Virus record (IMG/VR): IMGVR_UViG_3300045227_000003
Source of the DNA: a virus
Strand: one strand, 5' to 3'
DNA length: 60,167 nt
Below the pieces are notes generated by a model. The model saw nothing but the letters and a program-made list of their open reading frames with translations, had not been told where the DNA came from and did no database searches. A program made the position numbers and the translations under genes. Numbering within the stretch: the first letter of the stretch is position 1; each line of letters begins with the position of its first letter. Below, piece by piece: positions 5,384-60,167 of the stretch.

Positions 5384-5665
5384 ATGCGTTTTCCGAAATG
5401 GGCGATCTCCGATGATCGAATGAAGGTTAAATACCTAATGATGCAGATGGCATTAGAGGTAGACCCGAACGGCCGCATGGCTGTTTTGGCAAAAGAGGCA
5501 GACGTTGGGTACGAAACCCTTTTATGGGCAATTCGCAATAACGTGTCATCAGTTGTGGCCGAAAAAGTAAGCGCTGCAGTGCCACAATGCGGGGTTCGGC
5601 CCCATTGGTTGACTAACCCGTCATGGATCAAATTCGATGAAACAACCGGGGAAATCTTTGAATGA
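5384..5665 (+). CDS. Small Cro/YdaS-like HTH regulator, 93 aa
   Basis: First gene after the rightward promoter. The segment AVLAKEADVGYETLLWAIRNN...AAVPQCGVRPHWL resembles the YdaS/Cro-type HTH layout. Its stop overlaps the primase start (ATGA). Confidence 0.5.
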   Translation: MRFPKWAISDDRMKVKYLMMQMALEVDPNGRMAVLAKEADVGYETLLWAIRNNVSSVVAEKVSAAVPQCGVRPHWLTNPSWIKFDETTGEIFE

Positions 5666-8253
5666 ATTTTTGGCAGCTACACGGCTTAGATCTATGGGGT
5701 AACGGCTACACAATTGTGCCGATCTACTCCCCGGACGCCGATAAAAAAGGAGCCGGTAAACGGCCTATCGGCGAAGACTGGCAGCAAACTATCAATTCGA
5801 AGGAGGAAATTCAGGGTTGGGCACGTCGCTACACGAATAACGGTATCGGCATCCTGACCAAACGTACGCCTGCAGTCGACATTGACGTCTACGACGAAGA
5901 CGCCGCCGCGCACATGGCGAGCTGGGTTGAGGAAAACGTCGGTTTCGCCCCATGTCGTATCGGGCAAGAGCCGAAACGCCTGTATCTGTTCCGCACTGAC
6001 GAACCCTTCTCCAAGGTCAAGTCCTGCGTGTGGGAAGATGACTTTGGGCAGCGCCATGCCGTCGAAATCCTCGCAGATGGTCAGCAGTTCGTGGCCTACG
6101 GCATCCACCCGGATACCCGCAAAGAGTATTACTGGACGGGCCTCGATAACCCGCTGAACCATTCAGCCGAACTCGACTTGGAACCGCTGACGTTGGAAGC
6201 CGCGCGCGAGATCGCCGGGGAGTTCGACCGCTACGCAACCGAGCAAGGTTGGTTGAAAGTGAAGCGCGCTATCAACGGGCACGAAGCCGTGGGCGTCGCG
6301 GATGACGATGATTGGGCAAGTATGGCCGACGTCCAGAAATGGGACGGCACGTACGAAGACCTGCGCGACATCGTGATGAAGTACCCGAACCCGGAAGACT
6401 ACGAAAGCTGGATCACCGTACTGGCCGCGCTGCAGATCTCATGTCGCGACCAAGAGGAAGCGAAAGCCATCGCCCGGGAGTGGTCGGCACAGGCCGGTAA
6501 CTACGACGAGGCGGAATTTGACCACAAGTGGGACAAAGGCTTCGACCACAACGCCGGGCGGCTCGTCACTCTTGGCACGATCATCAAAACTGTCCGTGAC
6601 ATCGAGAAAGCCGAGGCCGAAGAGGCAGCGGTAGACTTCCGTGAAGGCTTTTCCACCAGCGAGAACATGTCTGACTGGAACGCATGGGCCGAATCGTTCA
6701 AGAAAGCGCAGATTTTCGGGCTTACACGTAAGGCCGTTGTCATCGTTGCCGCCGAAAAATACCGCCAATTCAACAATTTCCGACTCACTGCAGCCGACAA
6801 AAAGGAGCTTTTGGGCTTCGATTATGGCTCAAAAGACACCCCGACATGGCTTAAAAACTTCGTTTTCTCCAAGTCAAACGACGCGTTTATCGACAAATCG
6901 ACGGGTGATCTGATCTCAAAAGGCGCTTTCGACGTGGCTTACGCGAAGAAATGTACCTTCGAAGAAGAGAAATTTAAGCCAACCATGTACGCATCCGAAG
7001 TAAAACCTGTCCCGATGGTCTGGGATGGCATGTATTACCCGGAAATGCACGGCGACATGACTGGCACGAAGTGGAAACCGAGCGATGACGTCCCGGGGCC
7101 GGAATTCTTCACCGATCACCAAGGCCGTTTGTGGTTTAACACGTTCGACCAGGACTCGATCCCGGAACCGGCAGGCGAATTGTCGAAGTATGACCGCAAG
7201 GCGCTGGAAATCATCAAAGACTTCCTGCTTGTGCTGTTCCCGAACGAGAAAGAGCGCGGTTACGTGATGGATTGGATGGCGTGGGTCGTTCAGAACCCTA
7301 CCAAGCGCGTCAACTACTCACTCCTGATCCGTGGTGCCCACGGTTCCGGTAAAACGACGCTGGGTATCCTCATGTCGGCCATGTTGGGCCGGTCTAACGT
7401 GGGGTATGTGTCCAACTCCGTCATGAATGGCCGCTTCTCGGAATGGGCCGAGGGCCACATCCTGAAAATCGTGGAAGAGATCTACGACAAAGGCGACCGG
7501 TACAGCGCGGTGGAGCGCCAGAAGGAATTCATCACGAATGACCGCTTTCAGGTAGAGCCGAAGGGCCGTAAGGCGAAAGAGGTTGTGAATACTTCCAGCA
7601 AGATGATGTTCACCAACCACTTTAACGCCCTTCCACTGGATGAAAACCAGCGTCGTTATCTGGTGGTGTCCACCCAAGCCGAGAACCACCTCGACATGGA
7701 ACGCGTTTACGGGTCAGCGTCGGAGCGCTCGCGCTTCTTCAAAAACGTGTACCGCGCCATTGAAAGCCACGGCCCGGCCATCAAGAAATGGTTCTTGGAT
7801 TGGGCCATCAGTGACAAGTTTGACGCCAAGGGCCACGCACCTCAAGACACCGAAGCATTTGCCGTTATGTCCGACGCTTCTGGCGACGGTGTGACCGAAG
7901 TAATTGTGCAAATGTTGAGGGAGGAAAACACCCTCGGCGTGAACCGTGACGTGATCTTCTCTCCGGCTCTGAAAGACGCGTTTCTTGAAACGGCAAGTGA
8001 TCTAGAATTCCCTAAAGGGCCACGTCTGAAAAACATCTTAATGGAGTTGGGATTCAAGCCTGCAGGCGTGTTCAGTTATGACTCGGAAAAGGGTCGTTTG
8101 TACGTCCGAAATCGCATGAAAGGAGCGTTTAACGATGATGGCAGTTTAAACCTCTCAACCATCCGATCGATACTCAAAAAGCACAACGATCGGATCGAGG
8201 CGCTTATCGAAAAAGTGCCGAATCCGTTCGACGACGAAGATGACGAAGTGTGA
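5662..8253 (+). CDS. Primase-polymerase (AEP) fused to an SF3/D5-type helicase
   Basis: 863 aa. N-terminal prim-pol signature (GYTIVPIY..KRPIG.DWQ, DIDVYD, AYGIHP) and Walker A GAHGSGKT in the C-terminal half. Tail is PFDDEDDEV. Confidence 0.85.
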   Translation: MNFWQLHGLDLWGNGYTIVPIYSPDADKKGAGKRPIGEDWQQTINSKEEIQGWARRYTNNGIGILTKRTPAVDIDVYDEDAAAHMASWVEENVGFAPCRIGQEPKRLYLFRTDEPFSKVKSCVWEDDFGQRHAVEILADGQQFVAYGIHPDTRKEYYWTGLDNPLNHSAELDLEPLTLEAAREIAGEFDRYATEQGWLKVKRAINGHEAVGVADDDDWASMADVQKWDGTYEDLRDIVMKYPNPEDYESWITVLAALQISCRDQEEAKAIAREWSAQAGNYDEAEFDHKWDKGFDHNAGRLVTLGTIIKTVRDIEKAEAEEAAVDFREGFSTSENMSDWNAWAESFKKAQIFGLTRKAVVIVAAEKYRQFNNFRLTAADKKELLGFDYGSKDTPTWLKNFVFSKSNDAFIDKSTGDLISKGAFDVAYAKKCTFEEEKFKPTMYASEVKPVPMVWDGMYYPEMHGDMTGTKWKPSDDVPGPEFFTDHQGRLWFNTFDQDSIPEPAGELSKYDRKALEIIKDFLLVLFPNEKERGYVMDWMAWVVQNPTKRVNYSLLIRGAHGSGKTTLGILMSAMLGRSNVGYVSNSVMNGRFSEWAEGHILKIVEEIYDKGDRYSAVERQKEFITNDRFQVEPKGRKAKEVVNTSSKMMFTNHFNALPLDENQRRYLVVSTQAENHLDMERVYGSASERSRFFKNVYRAIESHGPAIKKWFLDWAISDKFDAKGHAPQDTEAFAVMSDASGDGVTEVIVQMLREENTLGVNRDVIFSPALKDAFLETASDLEFPKGPRLKNILMELGFKPAGVFSYDSEKGRLYVRNRMKGAFNDDGSLNLSTIRSILKKHNDRIEALIEKVPNPFDDEDDEV

Positions 8254-8280
8254 TTTTCGAAAAAATGGAGTCAAAAATGG

Positions 8281-8303
8281 GGGTCGCTTCGGCGGCCCTT
8301 CTT
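8281..8303 (+). terminator. Possible intrinsic terminator after the primase-helicase gene
   Basis: gggtcgc-ttcg-gcggccc hairpin (7 bp, one G-U pair) followed by the weak T-tract ttctt. Confidence 0.35.
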
Positions 8304-8307
8304 GATC

Positions 8308-8575
8308 GTAACAGTTGCCCGATACTACTGTTACTCGATATGCCCATGAAATTGAAAGAGAAATCGCACTTTTCCCGTGAGTAACAGTTGCAGCTCACTT
8401 CTTTATATATATAAAAAACAGTATATACGGCAATAATTTTATATTTCTCTATCAGTATATCTCTCTTTTAACTGTAACTGTAACTATAGAGAGAAAAAGA
8501 GTAGTAGATTTAAGGACTTACGGAAAGTAACAGTTCCAGACAAACTGTTCCAAACTGTTAACTGTAACTGCTACT
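8308..8575. repeat. Iteron cluster flanking an AT-rich core, putative replication origin
   Basis: At least 9 copies of the core AAC(A/T)GTT, as TAACAGTT or AACTGTTA. Examples are at 8309, 8329, 8382, the run aactgtaactgtaac near 8470, 8528, and aaactgttccaaactgttaactgtaactg at 8543..8570. They bracket an A/T-rich stretch at 8400..8460 that contains cagtatat twice. Confidence 0.55.
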
Positions 8576-8918
8576 GCTGCGAATGGACATTTGGGCAGCG
8601 CCGATCACCACCAGCCCACCGCCCTAAGTGGTTGAAAGTAAAAGCGAATGAGGGGCCAAGACCCTTTCACCCCACACCCCCGGTCAGCACCCAAAACGGC
8701 CTTCCCCTACGGGGAGAACTCGTAAAAACCACGTAAGTCATTGATTTTGAAAGCGGGGCTATGAGAGATCCGGCGCATTTCGCGAGAAAGCGGCTCTGCG
8801 CACCCCCGGGAACACCGAAAACCGGGGAAGTACCTTTTTGAAATGCCGGGCCGAAAATCCCCGCCAGACCCCCGCCACGGCAGGCAGGACACAAAGACAT
8901 AGGGTAGGGTAGGTATGA

Positions 8919-9310
8919 CATAGATCGCCGCGTATAGCCCCCATAGCGGCCCAAATAGAGCTACCAACAAGCCCTATGTGATACCGTATTGCATGATCCG
9001 GCGCATAACACCCCATACAGGCCCACATACCGCCATGTTAGGACACACGCCACGTATACCACGCAGCCCACAACAGGCCGCACCAAGGGGTAACAGGGGA
9101 TAAAGGGCCGCATAAAGCCCTAGATGAAAGCAGGTACAACCGGGAAGGGGTAAGGCAGGGGTAACACTACACGCCGCGTATATCACAACCTAGGCCGTTA
9201 TAGGCCCGATACGGGGTAGGGTTTAATACATGGGGCGTATATCAGATAGGCAATAAAAAAGCCGCCCGGGTAGGCGGCCTATAATACATAGGGCGTATAT
9301 CATAGGCCAC
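8919..9310. repeat. Degenerate direct-repeat array in non-coding DNA
   Basis: Core GC(G/A)(T/C)ATA recurs near 8930, 9003, 9052, 9110, 9176, 9234 and 9293, at a spacing of about 49 to 73 bp. Clear paralogous units are 8919..8955 versus 8991..9026, and taatacat(g/a)gggcgtatatca at 9225..9246 versus 9283..9304. Confidence 0.6.
9255..9278 (-). terminator. Intrinsic terminator ending the minus-strand early block
   Basis: Minus-strand reading is gccgcc-tacccg-ggcggc followed by tttttt. It lies about 55 nt downstream of the stop at 9335. Confidence 0.75.
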
Positions 9311-9334
9311 ACTGTAGGCCCGGGGTAAAGGGGA

Positions 9335-9601
9335 TCATTTTTTCGGCCCTAGATCGCCTACGCGGCCAATGGAGACAAGCGCCGATAGTGCCCCGTCTAT
9401 GCCGTCATATCGTGAGAACGTAACCCCACTAGTCCGCACATCGTACCCAGTGCGCCCCTCTCGCTTGATGGCACGTAATGCGGCCACGGTAACACCGTCT
9501 AGGGCCGCGCTGTAGTCCCCGGGCTTGTGACCGGTCTCTATAGTCAGTACATGCGCAAGGCCGCTTTCCGCTATGAATGTGCGTTTCCTGATAAGCGCCA
9601 T
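9335..9601 (-). CDS. Hypothetical protein, 88 aa
   Basis: ORF track lists 9335..9658. I prefer the ATG at 9601 (MALIRKRTF), which overlaps the upstream stop as TGATG. Confidence 0.5.
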   Translation of the reverse strand: MALIRKRTFIAESGLAHVLTIETGHKPGDYSAALDGVTVAALRAIKREGRTGYDVRTSGVTFSRYDGIDGALSALVSIGRVGDLGPKK

Positions 9602-9792
9602 CAGAACACCCCCGCCTGAATGAGTAGATCCATATACAGCGCACCGAACACGCCACACACCACAACGGACAACGGGACGGACAAGTAAAGCGCGTTATCC
9701 GAATTCTTAGCGCCGAAATAACAAAGGGCATGGATTCCAGCCCCGGCCAAAATAGACATTAAGACCAATACAACCACATGCACGAATATCAT
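9601..9792 (-). CDS. Small membrane protein, 63 aa
   Basis: Two hydrophobic segments (VVLVLMSILAGAGI and VVVCGVFGALYMDLLI). Start and stop overlap the neighbouring genes. Confidence 0.5.
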   Translation of the reverse strand: MIFVHVVVLVLMSILAGAGIHALCYFGAKNSDNALYLSVPLSVVVCGVFGALYMDLLIQAGVF

Positions 9793-10253
9793 GATTGAAC
9801 CTTAACCCAGTGGAGAATATGATTAGAATCGTAACGCTTGCCATTAACCGAAATAGCGCCGCCGCTTTCCCGGGTATCCACGCCAACGCCTACACCCATG
9901 TAAACGCCGGTCTCGCTCCACACCCTAACGATCAGCCCTTGGATCGGCCTTTCCTGTGGGAAGTAAGAAGCATAGCGACCGAACCCCACTAGCAGCCGCT
10001 TAACCCCCATGCGCGGACGTTTGAGCGCCTCAAAGCGGCCTAGCAGGTCGAGCGTTGCAGTTTTCCGCACGTCACAGTACAGACCCGCCCGGGCACTGTA
10101 GGCGACCACGGCGGCGCGTTCTGCCAGTGGATCGGCTTGCTGGCTGCAAAGCACGTCCATGATCGGTGCGGTATCGTCATCCATCCAGCGGAGCGCGTAA
10201 ACCCCGTTATCACGTATTAGGCGACGTGCGGCGCGGTACTGTTCGCGATTCAT
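9789..10253 (-). CDS. Hypothetical protein, 154 aa
   Basis: ORF track. It has 4-nt overlaps with both neighbours. No motif recognised. Confidence 0.55.
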   Translation of the reverse strand: MNREQYRAARRLIRDNGVYALRWMDDDTAPIMDVLCSQQADPLAERAAVVAYSARAGLYCDVRKTATLDLLGRFEALKRPRMGVKRLLVGFGRYASYFPQERPIQGLIVRVWSETGVYMGVGVGVDTRESGGAISVNGKRYDSNHILHWVKVQS

Positions 10254-12388: not shown

Positions 12389-12417
12389 AATCTAATGATA
12401 CACGCCGCGTATGTCAA
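12389..12417 (-). promoter_or_regulatory. Phage promoter-family member, minus strand
   Basis: Reverse complement reads TTGACA-tacgcggcgtgtatcat-TAGATT with a 17-nt spacer. It lies inside a 55-bp segment (12371..12425) that is identical to 15732..15786. Confidence 0.8.
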
Positions 12418-15749: not shown

Positions 15750-15778
15750 AATCTAATGATACACGCCGCGTATGTCAA
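15750..15778 (-). promoter_or_regulatory. Phage promoter-family member, minus strand, exact duplicate of the one at 12389..12417
   Basis: The same TTGACA-17-TAGATT sequence, inside 15732..15786, which is identical to 12371..12425. Confidence 0.8.
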
Positions 15779-15984
15779 ACGCTTTTCTAAAATAATTCTA
15801 TCACGCCCCCTTTCCTTTATACGCGAAAAGCGAAAACGCCTAAGTCGCTGAATTGTATACGTTTTTACGATGTCACCCCCCGACCTGACCCCCTGCGGCA
15901 CGTCATCGACGGGCGACACCCCCGATCCGCACGCCGCGCCGGGCCGCTGGAATTCTCCACGAAAAACCAGCGCCACCCCGGCGG

Positions 15985-16225
15985 CTTACTTCAAAAACCT
16001 AGCCGGTTGCTAAATTTTGAACGCCGATCCCGGGGCTTACTTCAAAAACCTAGCCGGTTGCTGTTCAGCCCGGCGGCGATCAGGAAAAACCTCCACGTTC
16101 TCCCGGCTTACTTCAAAAACCTAGCCGGTTCTCGTTCGCACCATCGGCCCTTACTTCAAAAACCTAGCCGGTTGCTGTGTAGGCCCGGGGGTTCGCGGCT
16201 TACTTGACGAACCTAGCCGGTTGCT
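15985..16225 (+). repeat. Five direct copies of a 27-bp repeat, CTTACTTCAAAAACCTAGCCGGTTGCT
   Basis: Copies start at 15985, 16036, 16107 (ends ggttctc), 16150 and 16199 (variant cttacttGACGaacc). The spacing is irregular at 51, 71, 43 and 49 bp. All copies have the same orientation and sit between divergent promoters. Confidence 0.9.
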
Positions 16226-16271
16226 GTATTTCGCGTGAGCTTTTACTGGAAGGTGTCCTCGAAGGAAAAGT

Positions 16272-16300
16272 TTGACATACGCGGCGTGTAGCACTATTGT
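16272..16300 (+). promoter_or_regulatory. Phage promoter-family member, plus strand
   Basis: TTGACA-tacgcggcgtgtagcac-TATTGT with a 17-nt spacer. Confidence 0.75.
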
Positions 16301-16342
16301 TTGCCGAATGAATCTGCACCACACCACCACGGAGTAACAGAC

Positions 16343-19586: not shown

Positions 19587-19615
19587 TTGACATACGCGGC
19601 GTGTGTAGCTAAGAT
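19587..19615 (+). promoter_or_regulatory. Phage promoter-family member, plus strand
   Basis: TTGACA-tacgcggcgtgtgtagc-TAAGAT with a 17-nt spacer. Confidence 0.75.
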
Positions 19616-22887: not shown

Positions 22888-22916
22888 TTGACACACGCCG
22901 CATGTACAACTAACAT
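22888..22916 (+). promoter_or_regulatory. Phage promoter-family member, plus strand
   Basis: TTGACA-cacgccgcatgtacaac-TAACAT with a 17-nt spacer. Confidence 0.7.
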
Positions 22917-22918
22917 TA

Positions 22919-22952
22919 CTCCCGAAGGCCAACAAACCAACGGGAGTTTTTT
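22919..22952 (+). terminator. Intrinsic terminator starting 2 nt after the -10 of the promoter above
   Basis: ctcccg-(16-nt loop)-cgggag followed by tttttt, with the ATG at 22953. The right arm GGGAG also serves as the Shine-Dalgarno sequence. Confidence 0.65.
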
Positions 22953-23909
22953 ATGTCTGAGAATCAAGTGTTAGTCAAGATCCCTGCCGGGCTGCACCCG
23001 GATACCACCGCCGAGCTGCAGAAGGTCGTGGCGGTAATGGCGGAGAGCCTAATGGAGAAGCAGCGCGGAGGCACCCCGCCGCTGTCATGGATGGCAGATA
23101 ATTGGGAGGCTGATTGTGCCCGTAAGATCCAGAAGTGCATCCATGAATCCCGCTATGCGGACGCCATGAACTACCTCATGTTCGCCCGCCACCACGGCTT
23201 TAACCTCCGCCTCAAGTCGTCGTCGGCGGTGCCGTACCACGTCAGTCTGTGCAACCTGCTAGGCATCCAAGCCGACTGCACCACCGACGAGGTATCCAAG
23301 GTGATCGCCTGCGCCATTCAGTCTAAGGGGAAAGCCGCCGCGTTTAGAACCGACCTACTAAAGCTCCTAGGCTACGGCGGTAGCGACTGGACAGACGCGG
23401 CGATCCTGCACGACATCGCGGAGTTGAAGAAACGCCAAGATGTCCATACGGCGCTTAAAATGTTCCAAGAGGTGATGTTGCAAGAGTTGAAAATCGACCT
23501 TAGCCAATATCCAACCGACCAAGAATTGATCCTCGCCGCCCGCGATAGACTGCGTGCATCTATGCCGGTGGCAAACTCCTGCCCGACCACGGCGTACGTC
23601 TTCCAGTCAGTCAAGGATCAGGAGGACTATTCTGATTTACTGGCGGTATTACTTGGCGCACTGGATCAAGCCGCGTACGGTAAAGGCCGTGAACGTCACG
23701 CCAACGACGCCCCCTTTGCCGAACAGCCTATGCAGGCTATTTCAGACCTACTCGCGTCGCCGCTTGGCATGGCCTATCAGGTGGCTAAGAAGGTCGTTGA
23801 GGCGACAAACATGCCGTCCATTGAACAGCAGGAAAGGGAGTTGTTCGGGGCGATCAATTATACTGCCGGGATGATAATCTGGCTGCGCCGCCACAATAAG
23901 GCGCAATAA
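22953..23909 (+). CDS. Hypothetical protein, 318 aa, possible dNTP pyrophosphohydrolase-like C-terminal domain
   Basis: The C-terminal AYGKGRERHANDAPFAEQPMQ...AYQVAKKVVEA...ELFGAINY resembles, from memory, the phage dATP/dGTP diphosphohydrolase-type helical domain. The functional call is weak. Confidence 0.6.
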   Translation: MSENQVLVKIPAGLHPDTTAELQKVVAVMAESLMEKQRGGTPPLSWMADNWEADCARKIQKCIHESRYADAMNYLMFARHHGFNLRLKSSSAVPYHVSLCNLLGIQADCTTDEVSKVIACAIQSKGKAAAFRTDLLKLLGYGGSDWTDAAILHDIAELKKRQDVHTALKMFQEVMLQELKIDLSQYPTDQELILAARDRLRASMPVANSCPTTAYVFQSVKDQEDYSDLLAVLLGALDQAAYGKGRERHANDAPFAEQPMQAISDLLASPLGMAYQVAKKVVEATNMPSIEQQERELFGAINYTAGMIIWLRRHNKAQ

Positions 23910-25686: not shown

Positions 25687-25715
25687 TTGACACACGCGAC
25701 GTGTACAACTAATAT
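25687..25715 (+). promoter_or_regulatory. Phage promoter-family member, plus strand
   Basis: TTGACA-cacgcgacgtgtacaac-TAATAT with a 17-nt spacer. The spacer holds the palindrome ACACG-cga-CGTGT. Confidence 0.75.
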
Positions 25716-25717
25716 TA

Positions 25718-25749
25718 CTCCCGAAGGCAACAACGGGAGTTTTTCTTTT
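25718..25749 (+). terminator. Intrinsic terminator starting 2 nt after the -10 of the promoter above
   Basis: ctcccg-aaggcaacaa-cgggag followed by tttttctttt. Confidence 0.65.
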
Positions 25750-52625: not shown

Positions 52626-53939
52626 TTAAGCCCATTGTTCGCCAGCTACAGACTTAGCAGCAGCCATCAGCCCGGCAGTTTCTTTATCTTCCTGCGTGCC
52701 TTCCTGACCAGCGTCGGCACCTGCATTCGGATGTTGTGCGTTAGCCATTACGTTATCGAAAGGACTATCGCCTTTGGCTGCTGCAGGGTTCGCTGGCGCA
52801 GCAGGTGCGGCAGGTGCGGCGGCCGATTTTTCTTCGGCGGATACAACCAACATGTCGCCAGCTTCGGCAACGGTCATGGAGGTTTTGAAAGCCAAATGCG
52901 ACGCCAGATTAGGGCGGTTCGCGGCGGCTTCGCAGCCCATGATCCCGGCGATGCGGGTACGTTCTGCGGTGGTCGCTTGCGCTGCTGCTTCTTGGCGCGC
53001 GGCGTCCATTTCTTCTTGAGTAAAGCTCATGGCATTTGCTCCTGATTGTTCTGAGCCGTCGGAAGGCCCGTTTAGAAATTCTGCTACGGCCTGCATCGGG
53101 GTCGTAACTGCGTCGATTAGCCCGATTGCCTTCGCGTCCTGAGCGTTATAGCACATTGCCTCGGTGTCGCGCACTACCTTCGGATCTAAATTCCTGTTTT
53201 GGGCCACCAGATTAACGAAATCTGTACGCATACTATCGACGCTTGCCTGATAGTTTGCCCGGACTTCATCTGACAGTTCCTCGTAGGGGTTGCCATCGGC
53301 TTTGTGTGCGCCTGACTTGATGATGCTGACCTTGATGCCGATGTCTTCCAGCATTTTCGACATGTCGACGTGCATGGAAATCACACCAATGCTGCCAGCA
53401 CCACCCGACGGGATGACCGTCATCTTGTCTGCCGCACTACCGATGGCATACGCAGCAGAATAGCAATTAGAATCGATTACCGCCAGCGAAGGTTTCACGC
53501 CGCGTGTGTCGAACATTTCTTGCGCCAGTTCAAAACAGCCTGCGGCCTCGCCACCGTTCGAGTTGATGTCGTAAATAATCCCCTCGACATCCGGGTCAGT
53601 CAGGGCCGCATTACGTTGGCTGCGAATGAAGTTGTAACCGGTAACGTAGCCGTAGTAGTACCCGCCGTAACGGTTGATAAGCGTGCCGTGTACCGGGATG
53701 ATTGCTAGGCCGTTGGAGAACGCAAACGGCTTACCTTGGCCCGGCTGGCCGATGCCATATGCTGCGCACAGGTTCTCGCGCATCTGCTGCTCTGCGCGTT
53801 CCTGATAGTCGTCATCTTCGCACATCATCATTTGCTGCAGGTTCGACATCATGGTGGTGTCGTTGTCACGTACGGCGATGGCGTTACCGTTCATGCGATT
53901 GAGCGCCATCATGACGCTTGCTCTTACCTGATCATTCAT
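52626..53939 (-). CDS. S49 (SppA/ClpP-fold) head maturation protease with scaffold-like C-terminal region, lambda gpC-like
   Basis: IPVHGTLINR...DINSNGGEAAG...NCYSAAYAIGSAADK...GGAGSIGV fits the S49 peptidase signature. The C-terminal part is Ala-rich. Confidence 0.8.
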   Translation of the reverse strand: MNDQVRASVMMALNRMNGNAIAVRDNDTTMMSNLQQMMMCEDDDYQERAEQQMRENLCAAYGIGQPGQGKPFAFSNGLAIIPVHGTLINRYGGYYYGYVTGYNFIRSQRNAALTDPDVEGIIYDINSNGGEAAGCFELAQEMFDTRGVKPSLAVIDSNCYSAAYAIGSAADKMTVIPSGGAGSIGVISMHVDMSKMLEDIGIKVSIIKSGAHKADGNPYEELSDEVRANYQASVDSMRTDFVNLVAQNRNLDPKVVRDTEAMCYNAQDAKAIGLIDAVTTPMQAVAEFLNGPSDGSEQSGANAMSFTQEEMDAARQEAAAQATTAERTRIAGIMGCEAAANRPNLASHLAFKTSMTVAEAGDMLVVSAEEKSAAAPAAPAAPANPAAAKGDSPFDNVMANAQHPNAGADAGQEGTQEDKETAGLMAAAKSVAGEQWA

Positions 53940-55884: not shown

Positions 55885-57978
55885 TCAGGCTAGTAGTGCC
55901 GCTAAGTCTTTAAAACTGTATTCGCTATCCGAAGACTGTTCAAACTTTTTGTCCTCTTCGGGCTTGCGGATCATGAAGTTGGTCTCCCAACCGGCGGCCC
56001 AGCCCGGAGGGTTCTCCCAATCAAGCTGCTCGACTGCGAGAACACGCCCGCTGACGCACATGCCAAGCACATAGTAACTCAAGTCCCACGTTTCGTTTCG
56101 GGAGTTATTCGGGTTTTCCCAACCTTTGTCGGTTCTGATCTCCACGCACAGCTCCGAAAACACGTAGTCCGCTGACCAGTCGCCGATATGATACATGCCT
56201 TTGCCCGGCTCCATTACGTCCAGTCGACCGTTCAGGGTGTCTTTCATCACGTTGGAGTTAATCATCAGTACCGGAACGTCGCCCCGGGCGATGGCTTTCT
56301 TATCCTTCTGGTTGGAGTCAGGAAGCGCTATACGCGTACGTGGGTTGTTTACCCTATGGTCGCCCTTGACTAAGCAGAAACGTTGGTTGTGGCCCTCGTT
56401 ACGCAGCTTCCTGTAATACTCATACGCGTTACCTGTAACCCCTGCCTCCCCGCCGGAGTCACACCCGGTCATTTTGATAGGCATCATTCGGCCCGATCCA
56501 TCGGCCAACGGGTACTCTTTGTCCATCACCAGTTCTTTGATTAGATCCCAGTCTTCCAGATACGCCGCCGGGTTGAGGATCAGCGGGTCGCCGTCAACGT
56601 CGAGGCGTTTGGACTTCGCGATGTTGAAGCGGTCGACGACAAACGTGTCAAACGGGTAGCCCGGGCCAATGCCCATGACCAACACCTCGAAGCGGTTTTT
56701 CTGCACGTCGACGGTCGCTACCAAGAAGTGCGCACCGTCCGGCACGGTCTGTTCCGGCCATGCCTCTGCGCGGGATTTCAGCAGCTCCGGCACGCGCATA
56801 GACTCGACTGATTTCGGGCGGTACGGCTCGCCCATGTCGTTGTTCCAGAATTTCTTCAAGGACTCTTCGGACAGGGTGCGCTCGTAGTCGTCGGACGCGT
56901 CCAGATAGTTGAGCACCAGTTTCTGCCATGTGATGAATGCCGCCGCTGTACCGCGCAGCCAGAAGGAGGCGAATGACGAGCGAGGCTTCTCACCGACGAG
57001 CTGGCCCACCTCGTTGATGCGGCAACCTTCCGGCACCCACATACCCCAGATATTCATTTCGTACTTATCAACCGGCGCGATCTCGCTGCCACAATGCGGG
57101 CAGGCCATCCGGGTAGTCTCGGACTTTTCGAGGTTCGATAGCGGCGCGCCATCTTTGCCCTTGGTGTCCCAGCGAAGCAGGTCAAACGTGCCTTCGAAAT
57201 ACTGATCGCAGTGCGGGCACGGCCAATGCCAGCGGCGACGGTCGCCACGGTTATACAGGCCGATGATCCCTTCGCATGGCGGGGCTTCGTGAGGGGAGCG
57301 CTTGATCCAGCTCGGGTCGATAATCGGGCGGGATGGCGATGACTCGGCGATGCACATGGCAAACGAGCCAAAGGTGGTCGTACGTTTCGAGGCGAGGTCG
57401 AAGGCATTACCGTCCCCGCCGATGTCGTCGTCGATACGGTCGTAGTCCGTGATGATGATGCGGCCAACCGGTCGCCCGGCCAGTTCGGTTACGGACGGGT
57501 AACTCAACGTCAGGATGATGCCGGTGATGTAGTGCTTGTCAAACTTGTTGTCGGCGTCGCGGTTCTTCATCAGCATTTTGCCGATTTCCGGGCTGTGCCG
57601 GTGAAGACGGTCTACACGTCGCATTGAGAAGTCGCGGGCGGCTGTGCTGGTGGGGCAAAAGATCATCGTGTCCATCGGGTCGACGCGGACAGAGTAGGCA
57701 ATGCCGTTCAGGATCAGGGCATCCGTTTTACCTGTCTGCGCCGGGCCGACAAACGCCATCTTGTCGTACTCCCGGCTGTTAAGCATGTTCATCGGGTCGA
57801 CCATGTACGGCGTCGTGATGTTCATCCACGGCCCGACATACGCGCCGGGCTGATTGACGTAGCGGTACTTGCTCGCAGCCTCGGCCACGGTCATTCGCAT
57901 CGGCGGCTTTAGCTGCTCCGCCACTGAGCAAATGATTTGAGCGATGCTATCAAACTTCATCGTCGCCCACCTTGTCAT
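55885..57978 (-). CDS. Terminase large subunit, lambda gpA family
   Basis: Walker A VGPAQTGKT. The probable true start is the ATG at 57960 (MKFDSIAQ), 6 nt after GGTGG, which overlaps the last codons of TerS. Confidence 0.9.
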   Translation of the reverse strand: MTRWATMKFDSIAQIICSVAEQLKPPMRMTVAEAASKYRYVNQPGAYVGPWMNITTPYMVDPMNMLNSREYDKMAFVGPAQTGKTDALILNGIAYSVRVDPMDTMIFCPTSTAARDFSMRRVDRLHRHSPEIGKMLMKNRDADNKFDKHYITGIILTLSYPSVTELAGRPVGRIIITDYDRIDDDIGGDGNAFDLASKRTTTFGSFAMCIAESSPSRPIIDPSWIKRSPHEAPPCEGIIGLYNRGDRRRWHWPCPHCDQYFEGTFDLLRWDTKGKDGAPLSNLEKSETTRMACPHCGSEIAPVDKYEMNIWGMWVPEGCRINEVGQLVGEKPRSSFASFWLRGTAAAFITWQKLVLNYLDASDDYERTLSEESLKKFWNNDMGEPYRPKSVESMRVPELLKSRAEAWPEQTVPDGAHFLVATVDVQKNRFEVLVMGIGPGYPFDTFVVDRFNIAKSKRLDVDGDPLILNPAAYLEDWDLIKELVMDKEYPLADGSGRMMPIKMTGCDSGGEAGVTGNAYEYYRKLRNEGHNQRFCLVKGDHRVNNPRTRIALPDSNQKDKKAIARGDVPVLMINSNVMKDTLNGRLDVMEPGKGMYHIGDWSADYVFSELCVEIRTDKGWENPNNSRNETWDLSYYVLGMCVSGRVLAVEQLDWENPPGWAAGWETNFMIRKPEEDKKFEQSSDSEYSFKDLAALLA

Positions 57979-58525
57979 CCTTCTTAAACTTGTCGATCAG
58001 CGCCACGGCCAAGTCGTTCAGCATTCCATCCACCGACGACTGCACCACGTTGCGCTGCGCTTCGGTCAGACCTGCTTGGCGGGCCAGCGTATCGGGGATA
58101 AGCAGCATGGACATGCGAAGCAGTTTTACCGCCTCGCCGAAATGCTCGACCACCTGCTCGGTCTCCCACAAATTACCGGCCTTGATGTCGAAGTCCTGCT
58201 TGGCGCGCTGCCCGGCCCAAAACTCTTTTGACAGCTCCTTGGGCAGATCCTTGAAATTCATGCGACGCAGGTAGGTCTCCACGTCATACAACGGCTTGAT
58301 CAGGTACGGGGCCACCTCATGCACCGCGTAGATCGGATACCCGCCGCGCTCTCCGATTGGCGGGACATCCATGATTTTAGGGGTGACGTCACGACGCTCC
58401 ATGCGAAACAGCTTCGCGATCTGCGTGATGTTGCACCCCTGAAAGATCATCGCCTCGGTATCAGCGTCCGGGGCGTTAGACCGGCGTTTGCCGGTCGCTA
58501 CTTCTGGTCTAGTCGTCTTCGTCAT
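57950..58525 (-). CDS. Terminase small subunit candidate, 191 aa, with DDEV tail
   Basis: Lies immediately upstream of TerL and overlaps it. It has an HTH-like segment, CNITQIAKLFRMERRDV, and ends in KVGDDEV. Confidence 0.6.
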   Translation of the reverse strand: MTKTTRPEVATGKRRSNAPDADTEAMIFQGCNITQIAKLFRMERRDVTPKIMDVPPIGERGGYPIYAVHEVAPYLIKPLYDVETYLRRMNFKDLPKELSKEFWAGQRAKQDFDIKAGNLWETEQVVEHFGEAVKLLRMSMLLIPDTLARQAGLTEAQRNVVQSSVDGMLNDLAVALIDKFKKDDKVGDDEV

Positions 58526-60071
58526 CCCATATCACCGTTTTCTTAGATTTACGTCGCCGGGCCACGCGGCCCTTAATTCGTTCGAGTAGCGCAAAGAACT
58601 CTTCTTGCACATCGCGCTTTTCTATCAGCGCTTCGATTACCGTTTCGTCGACTGTTGGTACCACATTGCCGTTTGGCGTTACCAGTTCGGTCTTCATCTG
58701 GTAGACCGTCACCGGGAATAGCTGCCCTTGGCGGTGGAGTCGTCCGTTAAACTGCTGGAACCTTTCGAGCGACCACGGATTGTCGACGTATACAATGACG
58801 TGGCCCCCGCGCTGCAAGTTTAGTCCGTGCCCGGCAGACTGCGGGTGGGCGGCCAGCAGGCGGATCTTACCGGCGTTCCACTTCTTGATGCACTTGCCTT
58901 CATCGTCCATGACCACCAAGTCCTTGAACCTCTCTTGCAGGCGCGCGAGGGTGGGCTTGAAGTGGTAGGCGATCAGCACGTTCTTGCCTTCGAGCGTGGT
59001 TTCCAGCAGTTCTTCCAGTGCATCGAATTTCAGGTCATGCAGCCGGTACATGTCCTTCTGCTTAATAACCTTGTCGTCTTCCGTGATCCCGACGATTTTG
59101 GTGTCGTAGATGAACCCGGAGGACATCTGCAGCAGTTTGGATTGAAGGCTGGCCGCCTGCTCCGCCTCGATAGCAATCGGGTCATCCAGATACTCGTCGA
59201 AATCCGGCGGCAGCATTTCGATGACCGACTCTTCTTCCATCTGCCGGTACAGCTCCGAAGTCCGCTCGTCGAGCCTTACCGGGACGGGCACAAAATGTAA
59301 TTCGTGCATGTCGAGGTAGTCTTCGGCTTTCATGACTAAACATATATCAGAAATCTTCCGGGTAATCTCTTTTTCCGCACCATCGCGCAGTTTCCACTTG
59401 AAGTTGTAGCGGTTCTGCGTGAAGTAGTTCTCCTGATACTTCGTGATGGCCGAGCCGAAGCGTTTGCCCTCGTCGATCAGGTAGATTTGCGAGAAGATGC
59501 CCATGTAGCCCTCTGCCGCCGGGGTGGCCGTCAGCTCGACAAAACGCTTCATGTACTTGCGCACCCGGCGCAGCAGTTTGAAGCGCTGCGACGTATGAGA
59601 CTTGAACATGCTGGACTCGTCAAGGATCACCATGTCAAACGGCCATTTGGTCTTGAAGTGCTCCACCAGCCAAGCGATGTTGTCCACGCTGACCGTGTAG
59701 AAATGGCAGTCCGTATGGGCCGCTATGGTGCGCTCTTTGGCGTTACCGGCGATGACCGACATCTTGTAGAAGCACAGGTGGCCCCACTCTTCGAACTCCG
59801 TCGGCCAGCCCACCCGGGCAACGCGCTTCGGCCCGATAACCAGCACTTTGTTGATCTCGCCATCCACGATTAAATCCAGCGCAGCGGTGCCGGACATAAC
59901 CGACTTGCCCAAGCCCAAGTCCACGAACAGGGCGCAGGCCGGGTTGTCCTTGATAAACTGGACGCCCGTTTCTTGGTAGCCGTGCATGTCGCCGCGTTCC
60001 AGTCGAACGTTGCGGCGCATGTACGCGAATGCCTTACTCAAAGGCGATAATGTAGTTCTTAAAGTCTGCAA
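58509..60071 (-). CDS. SNF2-family (SF2) helicase
   Basis: Motif I DLGLGKS, motif II ILDESSMFKS and motif VI GRLHRQGQ. The start is more likely the ATG at 60020 (MRRNVRL), just after the VRR-NUC stop. Ends in IWDDEDD. Confidence 0.85.
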   Translation of the reverse strand: MQTLRTTLSPLSKAFAYMRRNVRLERGDMHGYQETGVQFIKDNPACALFVDLGLGKSVMSGTAALDLIVDGEINKVLVIGPKRVARVGWPTEFEEWGHLCFYKMSVIAGNAKERTIAAHTDCHFYTVSVDNIAWLVEHFKTKWPFDMVILDESSMFKSHTSQRFKLLRRVRKYMKRFVELTATPAAEGYMGIFSQIYLIDEGKRFGSAITKYQENYFTQNRYNFKWKLRDGAEKEITRKISDICLVMKAEDYLDMHELHFVPVPVRLDERTSELYRQMEEESVIEMLPPDFDEYLDDPIAIEAEQAASLQSKLLQMSSGFIYDTKIVGITEDDKVIKQKDMYRLHDLKFDALEELLETTLEGKNVLIAYHFKPTLARLQERFKDLVVMDDEGKCIKKWNAGKIRLLAAHPQSAGHGLNLQRGGHVIVYVDNPWSLERFQQFNGRLHRQGQLFPVTVYQMKTELVTPNGNVVPTVDETVIEALIEKRDVQEEFFALLERIKGRVARRRKSKKTVIWDDEDD

Positions 60072-60167
60072 AATTGCTCACCCATGTTACGTTTGCGCCC
60101 TTCTCCCGCATCTGCTTATGCCGGAGAGCCTGTTGCACCGTCGGTTCTTTTCCGGGTCGTTTGAATT
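60034..60167 (-). CDS. 3' end of the VRR-NUC gene, second partial copy created by the terminal duplication
   Basis: 60041..60167 duplicates 1..127. The TAA stop is the reverse complement of 60034..60036. Confidence 0.7.
   Translation of the reverse strand, partial: FKRPGKEPTVQQALRHKQMREKGANVTWVSNFADFKNYIIAFE
60041..60167. repeat. Exact terminal duplication, copy 2
   Basis: Identical to 1..127. Confidence 0.95.

Follow-up and report, generated by a model that had tools for sequence, protein, structure and literature searches.

The viral record IMGVR_UViG_3300045227_000003 of IMG/VR, a stretch of 60,167 nucleotides referred to here as the window, contains a non-coding tract at 8590-9334, and this locus raises the question of what the tract serves for. 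A preliminary description, made from the sequence of the window, had pointed to an array of degenerate repeats within it and had considered a packaging site (cos) or a nucleoprotein site. We judge it probable that the tract is a Chi-like cos region, in which a core of the lambda type is joined by a separate array of operator-type sites bound as a nucleoprotein. As described before, the tract lies in a gene-free zone between convergent genes: the primase open reading frame (ORF; 5662-8253, plus strand) borders it with its end at 8253, and on the other side the ORF list places the end of the last gene of the long, rightmost small-gene operon (minus strand) at 9335.

BLAST comparison with phage records identified the window as the complete, circularly assembled genome of a Chi-like siphophage of the Casjensviridae. 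The cohesive end of Salmonella phage Chi itself has been mapped by primer extension as a 12-base 5′ extension, 5′-GGTGCGCAGAGC (PMC4342425). Run-off sequencing yielded an identical end for E. coli phage Utah (PMC5374247), and for Proteus phage Jing313 the same end was predicted by PhageTerm, in a study in which all six Proteus and Klebsiella phage genomes share these ends (PMC9022528). The window contains a single exact match to GGTGCGCAGAGC, located on the minus strand at 8793-8804, where it equals GGGTGCGCAGAGC without its leading G. The records of SPN19, FSL SP-124, BP12C, YSD1, BSPM4 and further phages start or stop exactly at the base aligned to position 8793 of the window, the iEPS5 record starts one base in (8794), and the homologous 12-mer is annotated as the cos overhang in the records of Enc34, Seifer and Smarc5. 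Because of the exact identity to the mapped Chi and Utah end and the start points of the relatives' records, we assign cosN to 8793-8804, and by these sequence matches it is highly likely that the terminase cuts there. The arms flanking cosN are homologous to those of Chi-like phages and the genomic position, between primase and the right-end small-gene operon, is the same. The end sequence of the Chi-like family is already known, and the window is a further member. Thus, the proposal of a cos within the tract holds, but the cut falls 115 bp to the left of the repeat array to which it had been attached. The same cos core is found in Providencia phage Redjac (L009, ~1280-1300) with one substitution in the 12-mer (GCTCTCCGCACC); the Redjac record was opened elsewhere, so the cos is unannotated there.

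To describe the surroundings of the cut, the core was aligned across ~16 lineages drawn from GenBank and an IMG/VR scan that used a cos 17-mer; of the scan loci, L013, L014, L017, L021 and L029 were dropped as their flanks are non-homologous. About 270 bp around the cut site (8690-8960) are conserved family-wide. At ~80 bp from the cut, the left arm has a hairpin or dyad with a covarying 5-bp stem, TCCCC-TAC-GGGGA (8703-8715). In nine lineages 91% of cells are paired, compared to 33-56% in slid controls; three of the five pairs have double changes (10 cells), and the observed score was not attained in any of 500 shuffles. The compensatory substitutions give the stem variants CCCC/GGGG, TCCC/GGGA, TACC/GGTA, GCCC/GGGC and CACC/GGTG around the centre TAC. 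Covariation in relatives, which had been suggested as a check of the tract, was hence found at this element.

Between the hairpin and the cut lies a perfect consensus for integration host factor (IHF), WATCAANNNNTTR (AATCAATGACTTA), on the minus strand at 8734-8746, i.e., 47-59 bp from the cut site. Only two perfect matches occur in the 60-kb genome, and the block GTAAGTCATTGATTTTGAAAG at this site is conserved family-wide. Binding of IHF at 8734-8746 is a prediction made from the match to the consensus. An IHF-type site had been expected within the tract; such a site is present, but to the left of the array. The interval from the IHF site to the cut (8747-8792) forms a further block conserved family-wide (AAAGCGGGGCTATG...CGCATTT...GCG), in which similarity to Klebsiella, Yersinia, Providencia and Hafnia phages peaks. 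By analogy of position to lambda cosB, this block is a candidate terminase recognition sequence. Conserved blocks are present throughout 8690-8792, and no clear repeated (R-type) element was seen there. The outer part of the proximal left arm (8590-8692), which is T-poor on the plus strand, is conserved in the closer relatives Enc34, Smarc5 and Chi.

On the right arm, 72% of the columns in 8793-8850 are invariant. Directly right of the cut site, a dyad CCCGG-N12-CCGGG (8805-8826) is present in most lineages and pairs in the predicted fold. It is followed by the most conserved block of this arm, GGGAAGTACCTTTTTGAAAT (8825-8844), which is near-invariant in 15 of 16 lineages and occupies the position of lambda cosQ; by analogy only, it might act as cosQ. 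Farther out, the blocks TAGGGTA(GGGTAGG) and GATCGCCGCGTATAGCCCCCATAGCGGC (8899-8950) recur family-wide, and nearly all lineages carry TAGGGTA at ~+103 and GATCGNCCCGTCT..GTAGCGG at ~+128 from the cut site. The unit at 8919-8955, previously counted among the repeats, is indeed conserved, but as a family-wide cos-proximal block and not as a copy of the operator discussed below. GATCGCCGCGTATAGCCCCCATAGCGGC includes a GATC (8923-8926) that is conserved family-wide, ~130 bp from the cut, and these phages encode a DNA adenine methylase; a methylation-sensitive recognition of cos, as at the P1 pac site, is conceivable.

When read in the orientation of Chi, a conserved block is followed by the cut site and then by the IHF-bearing arm, which is the order of lambda cosQ-cosN-cosB. 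The roles of the arms are deduced from these positions by analogy, and we hold them less firmly than the cut site. On this basis, terminase, helped by IHF, would recognise the conserved core and nick the two strands at staggered positions, producing the 12-nt 5′ overhang at 8793-8804. With its IHF site, hairpin and cut-adjoining block, the left arm would play a cosB-like role for TerS; packaging would, again by analogy, run from the left end to the right end. Two candidate elements were set aside. An inverted repeat flanking cosN (8693-8707 with 8824-8838) is not conserved in Chi or Smarc5, and an exact 12-mer, GATCCGGCGCAT, which occurs on both sides of the cut at 8767-8778 and 8995-9006, 228 bp apart, is likewise unconserved in Chi and Smarc5.

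The array is found on the right arm, 240-500 bp from the cut site, and its sequence leads to a set of promoters elsewhere in the genome. A 21-bp palindrome, TGAYAYACGCSGCGTRTRTCA, overlaps the -35 element and spacer of six strong promoters of the sigma-70 type (TTGACA-17 bp-TAnnnT), two in minus sense (12396-12416 and 15757-15777) and four in plus sense (16273-16293, 19588-19608, 22889-22909 and 25688-25708). All six drive the non-structural right-arm gene cluster, and the operator is missing from the replication-module promoters as read in Seifer. Allowing up to four mismatches to TGAYAYACGCSGCGTRTRTCA, 11 sites exist genome-wide, of which six are the promoters, four fall in a 262-bp part of the arm (9041-9302) and one lies elsewhere. 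This last site (53491-53511, four mismatches) lies inside a structural-gene ORF (52626-53939, minus strand).

The four arm sites differ from TGAYAYACGCSGCGTRTRTCA at three to four positions and all lie on the minus strand in one orientation, with their promoter sense toward the cut site. Site 1 (9041-9061) reads GTGGTATACGTGGCGTGTGTC in promoter sense, with three mismatches to the 21-bp consensus. Site 2 (9165-9185), GTGATATACGCGGCGTGTAGTG in promoter sense, is the best copy and has no mismatch to ACGCCGCGTATATCA. Sites 3 (9224-9244) and 4 (9282-9302) read TAATACATGGGGCGTATATCA and TAATACATAGGGCGTATATCA on the plus strand, and site 4 is placed upstream of the operon terminator in the direction of transcription. 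Where the promoters have TTGACA, the arm copies carry nTGATA, and at the -10 position they show TACCCC, ACCCTA, AGGCCG or AACATG, and do not qualify as sigma-70 promoters, for which a -35 hexamer, a spacer of 16-18 bp and a -10 hexamer with A in second and T in sixth place were required; likewise, a promoter scan of 8000-9800 returned no promoter. The earlier wording of decayed promoter and operator copies is accurate in this respect, and so is the observation that an ACGCSGCGT dyad is common to units of the tract and the promoter spacers while the arm copies have no usable -10.

The repeats noted before were recounted, with P values given as Poisson estimates that take the rest of the genome as reference. 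Instead of the seven copies of GC[GA][CT]ATA claimed, five exact copies were found, all on the plus strand at 8930-9299, against ~0.06 expected (P ~7e-9). GGGGTA, for which at least five copies had been reported, occurs five times in the tract, on the plus strand only (P ~3e-8), and one copy arises from the TACCCC at the -10 position of site 2. Three of the four genomic copies of TGATATAC are inside the tract. The terminator of the rightmost operon, an intrinsic one on the minus strand (9259-9280), consists of a 9-bp stem with six G-C pairs followed by a T run; 72% of its columns are invariant, and the Seifer record annotates a terminator at the homologous position. On either side of it stands the 21-mer TAATACATRGGGCGTATATCA, whose two copies are 95% identical, in agreement with the near-identical flanking unit described earlier.

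Conservation of the sites was compared with that of the remaining arm in a four-lineage alignment (window, Smarc5, Enc34 and Chi), in which the rest of the arm, taken as background, has 21% invariant columns. Site 1 reaches 48% and site 2 62%. Two of the units listed previously, 8991-9029 (17%) and ~9104-9120 (6%), do not rise above this background and are probably not real sites. Offsets from the cut are retained as well. Site 1 is found at +254/255 in Chi, Smarc5, L011 and L023, and the offsets +254, +375 and +434 are shared with Chi, Smarc5 and other Salmonella phages, with the homologues of site 3 at +434 in Chi and Smarc5; site 4 has homologues in Chi, Smarc5 and Enc34. Nearly every lineage has a same-strand site at +358 to +377, the sequence of which is TGATATACGCGGCGTGT in the window, TTGCACNCGNTGCAGGTGCA in the Klebsiella group, TGACACATGCGGCGTGTGT in L028 and TGACACATCCGAAGTGT in L030. 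The variant TGATATAC, which is specific to the arm, is common to the window, Chi, Smarc5 and Enc34. The length of the right arm is ~520-545 bp in the window, Enc34 and Chi; the arm of Seifer, at 608 bp, and that of Smarc5, which measures 985 bp up to the last gene annotated, are longer.

The arm motif matches the dispersed regulatory motif of the same lineage in at least four cases. For the window type, the arm motif comes within a minimum of one mismatch in 19 to its own promoters; L030 has an identical 17-mer in the arm and in a promoter spacer; in Seifer the arm motif matches the TTGCACTC..GTGCA promoters of this phage; and the distant L016 carries one copy of the palindrome GAAGTTACTTC in the arm and five elsewhere. 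A scan of IMG/VR together with metagenome scans yielded no closer relatives with the window-specific unit.

As the operator is kept while -35 and -10 are lost, the arm sites should bind their factor silently. We accordingly propose that the four sites derive from early promoters from which the TTGACA -35 and the -10 were removed, and by their sequence we lean, by a narrow preference, toward the view that they bind the factor of the early-promoter operators without starting transcription. The result would be a bound nucleoprotein array at a fixed distance from the cut, on the end that is packaged last and injected first. Its most likely role, in our view, would be that of an insulator or roadblock, or of a reservoir for the regulator; at the convergent junction, a roadblock or insulator would reinforce the terminator. 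That the distance to the cut is fixed speaks for a structural role. Among the alternatives named in the preliminary description, sites for a promoter-binding regulator fit the array best.

Which protein might occupy the array was addressed by inspecting small early proteins. The gp3-like protein (5384-5665), annotated as a transcriptional regulator in Chi and Seifer, is present and conserved in the window and, by this annotation, is a candidate binder. Searches of Pfam, PHROG and PDB with it and 18 other small early proteins called no DNA-binding domain. The helix-turn-helix (HTH) protein gp1 of Chi was discarded as binder of the array; Chi and Seifer carry its gene in the left arm, and it is absent from the window. 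In Smarc5, the 970-bp 'non-coding' left arm (L005:638-947) contains an apparent unannotated ORF where Chi and Seifer have gp1; the window and Enc34 are without a gene there.

Several observations weigh against the array being a set of silent sites for the promoter-binding factor. Site 3 is poorly conserved in Enc34, and the arm of L022 matches its own promoters poorly. The central bases vary among the promoters within some lineages, and therefore the sharing of motifs could reflect repeated copying and not shared binding. No obvious covariation was seen between the gp3-like protein and the operator type, and the AlphaFold model of this protein, computed from a single sequence, has a predicted local distance difference test (pLDDT) value of 44 and is unusable. 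In addition, the base composition is not accounted for by the favoured model. T makes up 15.0% of 8590-9334 and 22.4% of the whole genome, as the description of a T-poor tract had implied, and just 1.3% of 745-bp segments attain its AT skew of 0.32. This asymmetry, with an A+C-rich strand, covers both cos arms and is common to most lineages. RecBCD Chi sites (GCTGGTGG/CCACCAGC) were considered as its cause and rejected, being found in just 2 of 22 arms and nowhere in the right arm of the window.

A further-reaching possibility is that the array is a working part of packaging or ejection, i.e., an accessory cos element that couples the shut-off of early genes to the recognition of cos or the termination of packaging, or that protects or insulates the entering end. 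We regard this as rather unlikely. If true, it would be an element of a kind undescribed for lambda-type phages and conserved across the Casjensviridae.

Still less probable is an array that serves as the equivalent of cosB, a row of sites for the small terminase subunit that places terminase on cos. The repeats are regularly spaced, share one orientation and keep fixed offsets from the cut, and lambda cosB likewise combines repeated R sites with IHF. However, the window, Chi and Seifer share ~95% identity in the N-terminal region of TerS, yet the array motif differs among lineages with a near-identical TerS N-terminus (TGATATACGCGGCGTGT versus TTGCACTCGATGCAGGTGCA). Since the TerS N-terminus is nearly invariant and the array lineage-specific, TerS cannot explain the array, and the earlier suggestion of terminase sites in it is unlikely to be correct; judging from the sequences, the TerS sites should lie in the invariant core. 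Moreover, the motif is also found in the spacers of six promoters, the array does not start until ~240 bp from cosN, and both the IHF site and the blocks of highest conservation lie either on the opposite arm or far closer to the cut.

We assign an equally low probability to the idea that the array has no function and represents duplicated promoters that decay neutrally where no genes lie. As would be expected of relics, the copies are degenerate, two of the seven units of the preliminary description are unconserved, and the GGGGTA repeats are lineage-specific. Against this, the offsets persist across genera that are only ~67% identical in the arm, sites 1 and 2 are conserved two to three times more than the spacers, the TGATATAC variant is held in common by the window, Chi, Smarc5 and Enc34, and the arm keeps its length in the window, Enc34 and Chi.

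An even smaller chance is given to a replication origin, in which the repeats would be iterons for an initiator that, like plasmid Rep proteins, also acts as a repressor of promoters at inverted-repeat operators. In line with this idea, the arm has partial sites in direct repeat and the promoters have palindromic full sites, and an AT-rich stretch and the primase gene are nearby. Yet the AT-rich element is at least 450 bp away, across cosN, and has a dense cluster of 9-mers (GTAACAGTT) of its own; other lineages have more iteron-like arrays in a divergent intergenic region; and the cut site would interrupt the origin in virion DNA. The array itself has a G+C content of 51-57%, and its repeats do not adjoin an AT-rich unwinding element as direct repeats of an iteron origin do.

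The AT-rich stretch is an observation in its own right. The distal left arm (8300-8590) has 33% G+C and holds 10 of the 16 genomic GTAACAGTT-like 9-mers (up to one mismatch), in both orientations, around an AT-rich core at 8397-8460. This layout recurs in Chi, Enc34, Smarc5 and Seifer, with variants that are particular to the lineage (GTTACAAGTT, ATTACAAAT, GTAACAAG). By sequence, 8300-8590 looks like an origin with iterons and an unwinding element beside the primase gene. Separately, a large divergent intergenic region (Seifer L035:15484-16270; in L030 and L022 ~4.3-4.95 kb from cos) contains five to six tandem, lineage-specific motifs of ~15 bp, e.g., TACTTCAAAAAGTTA and AAAAACCTAGCAGGC, with a spacing of ~42-71 bp in L030 and L022. 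The equivalent gap of the window (15976-16301) is much shorter.

Finally, we see next to no chance that the tract encodes a small minus-strand protein or a structured non-coding RNA: three overlapping minus-strand ORFs of 87-95 codons are open at once and some GenBank relatives have hypothetical proteins annotated here, but tblastn in relatives gave equally good matches from all three frames, the best frame switches between relatives and all three ORFs cross the cos cut site, for which reasons we take them, as was done before, as non-coding. The structured RNA considered previously fares no better, in that Rfam and tRNA/tmRNA scans of the whole window found no match, folding of the right arm on both strands was no better than shuffles (z -0.8 and +1.0), and most of the arm lies downstream of a strong terminator with no promoter-like site found.

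Some features of the genome outside the tract complete the picture. Over the replication genes, the identity of the window is ~76% to Salmonella Chi-like phages and 82% to Serratia phage Smarc5, and BLAST against phage records found none at 90% identity or above; as judged by sequence, the window phage is a new species-level relative of the Chi-like phages. Nucleotides 60041-60167 are identical to 1-127. This 127-nt repeat is an overlap left by the assembler, and the contig is a circle of ~60,040 bp; the endonuclease gene crosses the junction. The gene order is that of Chi, with the minus-strand genes for TerL (55885-57978) and TerS (57950-58525), after which come helicase, endonuclease, DNA polymerase and primase. 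TerS matches DUF1441 and phrog_141 in sequence searches of Pfam, PHROG and PDB. Directly after two of the operator promoters (22915-22955 and 25714-25745), a leader hairpin CTCCCG..CGGGAG with a T run is present, and at 22953 its GGGAG arm doubles as the Shine-Dalgarno sequence of the first gene. The same hairpin follows the homologous promoters in Chi and Seifer, and it may be an attenuator or an element of translational control. Chi-like sequence was also encountered inside records labelled as Staphylococcus, Listeria or Enterococcus phages, e.g., SA1 (GU169904), LM 4-14-1 and Efm 3-10, which suggests contamination or mislabelling of these submissions.

A literature search for promoters or cos anatomy of Chi-like phages found end sequences only. 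The present analysis places the probable genome ends of the window phage and offers a first internal map of a Chi-type cos with cut site, IHF site, hairpin and conserved blocks. Both are of use in annotating and in constructing engineered or cosmid-like vectors, and help to take genome ends into account when the widely isolated Salmonella, Klebsiella, Proteus and Serratia phages of this kind are assembled. The array, if functional, would tie transcriptional control to the packaging or entry of DNA in a little-studied family of lytic phages.

Among known systems, the cos of Chi, Utah and other Chi-like phages is closest. The sequence of the 12-nt 5′ overhang is identical, the flanks are homologous with ~68% identity over 8734-9302, and the gene order is the same, with primase on one side, the right-end small genes and terminator on the other and the terminase genes ~10 kb off. 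The window differs from Chi and Seifer in having no gp1 HTH gene in the left arm, and published descriptions of Chi-like phages give the end sequence alone, without the internal anatomy mapped here. Lambda cos shares no sequence similarity with that of the window, but resembles it in having 12-nt 5′ cohesive ends (in the window, predicted from the sequence), an IHF consensus placed on one arm at ~50 bp from the cut (in the window, a sequence match), a short conserved element ~20-40 bp from the cut on the other arm and a conserved TerS with an N-terminal DNA-binding region. In contrast to lambda, the terminase genes of the window are not beside cos, no clear R-site repeats were identified in its cos, and the right arm of lambda has no promoter-operator-like array. 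At the concatemer junction of T7, DNA maturation involves promoter elements close to the genome ends; as in the window, promoter-type sequences stand beside a genome terminus and are directed toward it. The T7 elements, however, are active promoters of the phage RNA polymerase, whereas the copies in the window are of the sigma-70 type without a -10, and T7 has terminal repeats instead of cos ends. The iteron-operator logic of plasmid Rep systems likewise uses one motif in two forms, palindromic at promoters and, in a non-coding array, as partial copies that all point the same way. In the window, however, the array adjoins the packaging site and not an AT-rich unwinding element, and its motif controls six promoters rather than a single autoregulated gene.

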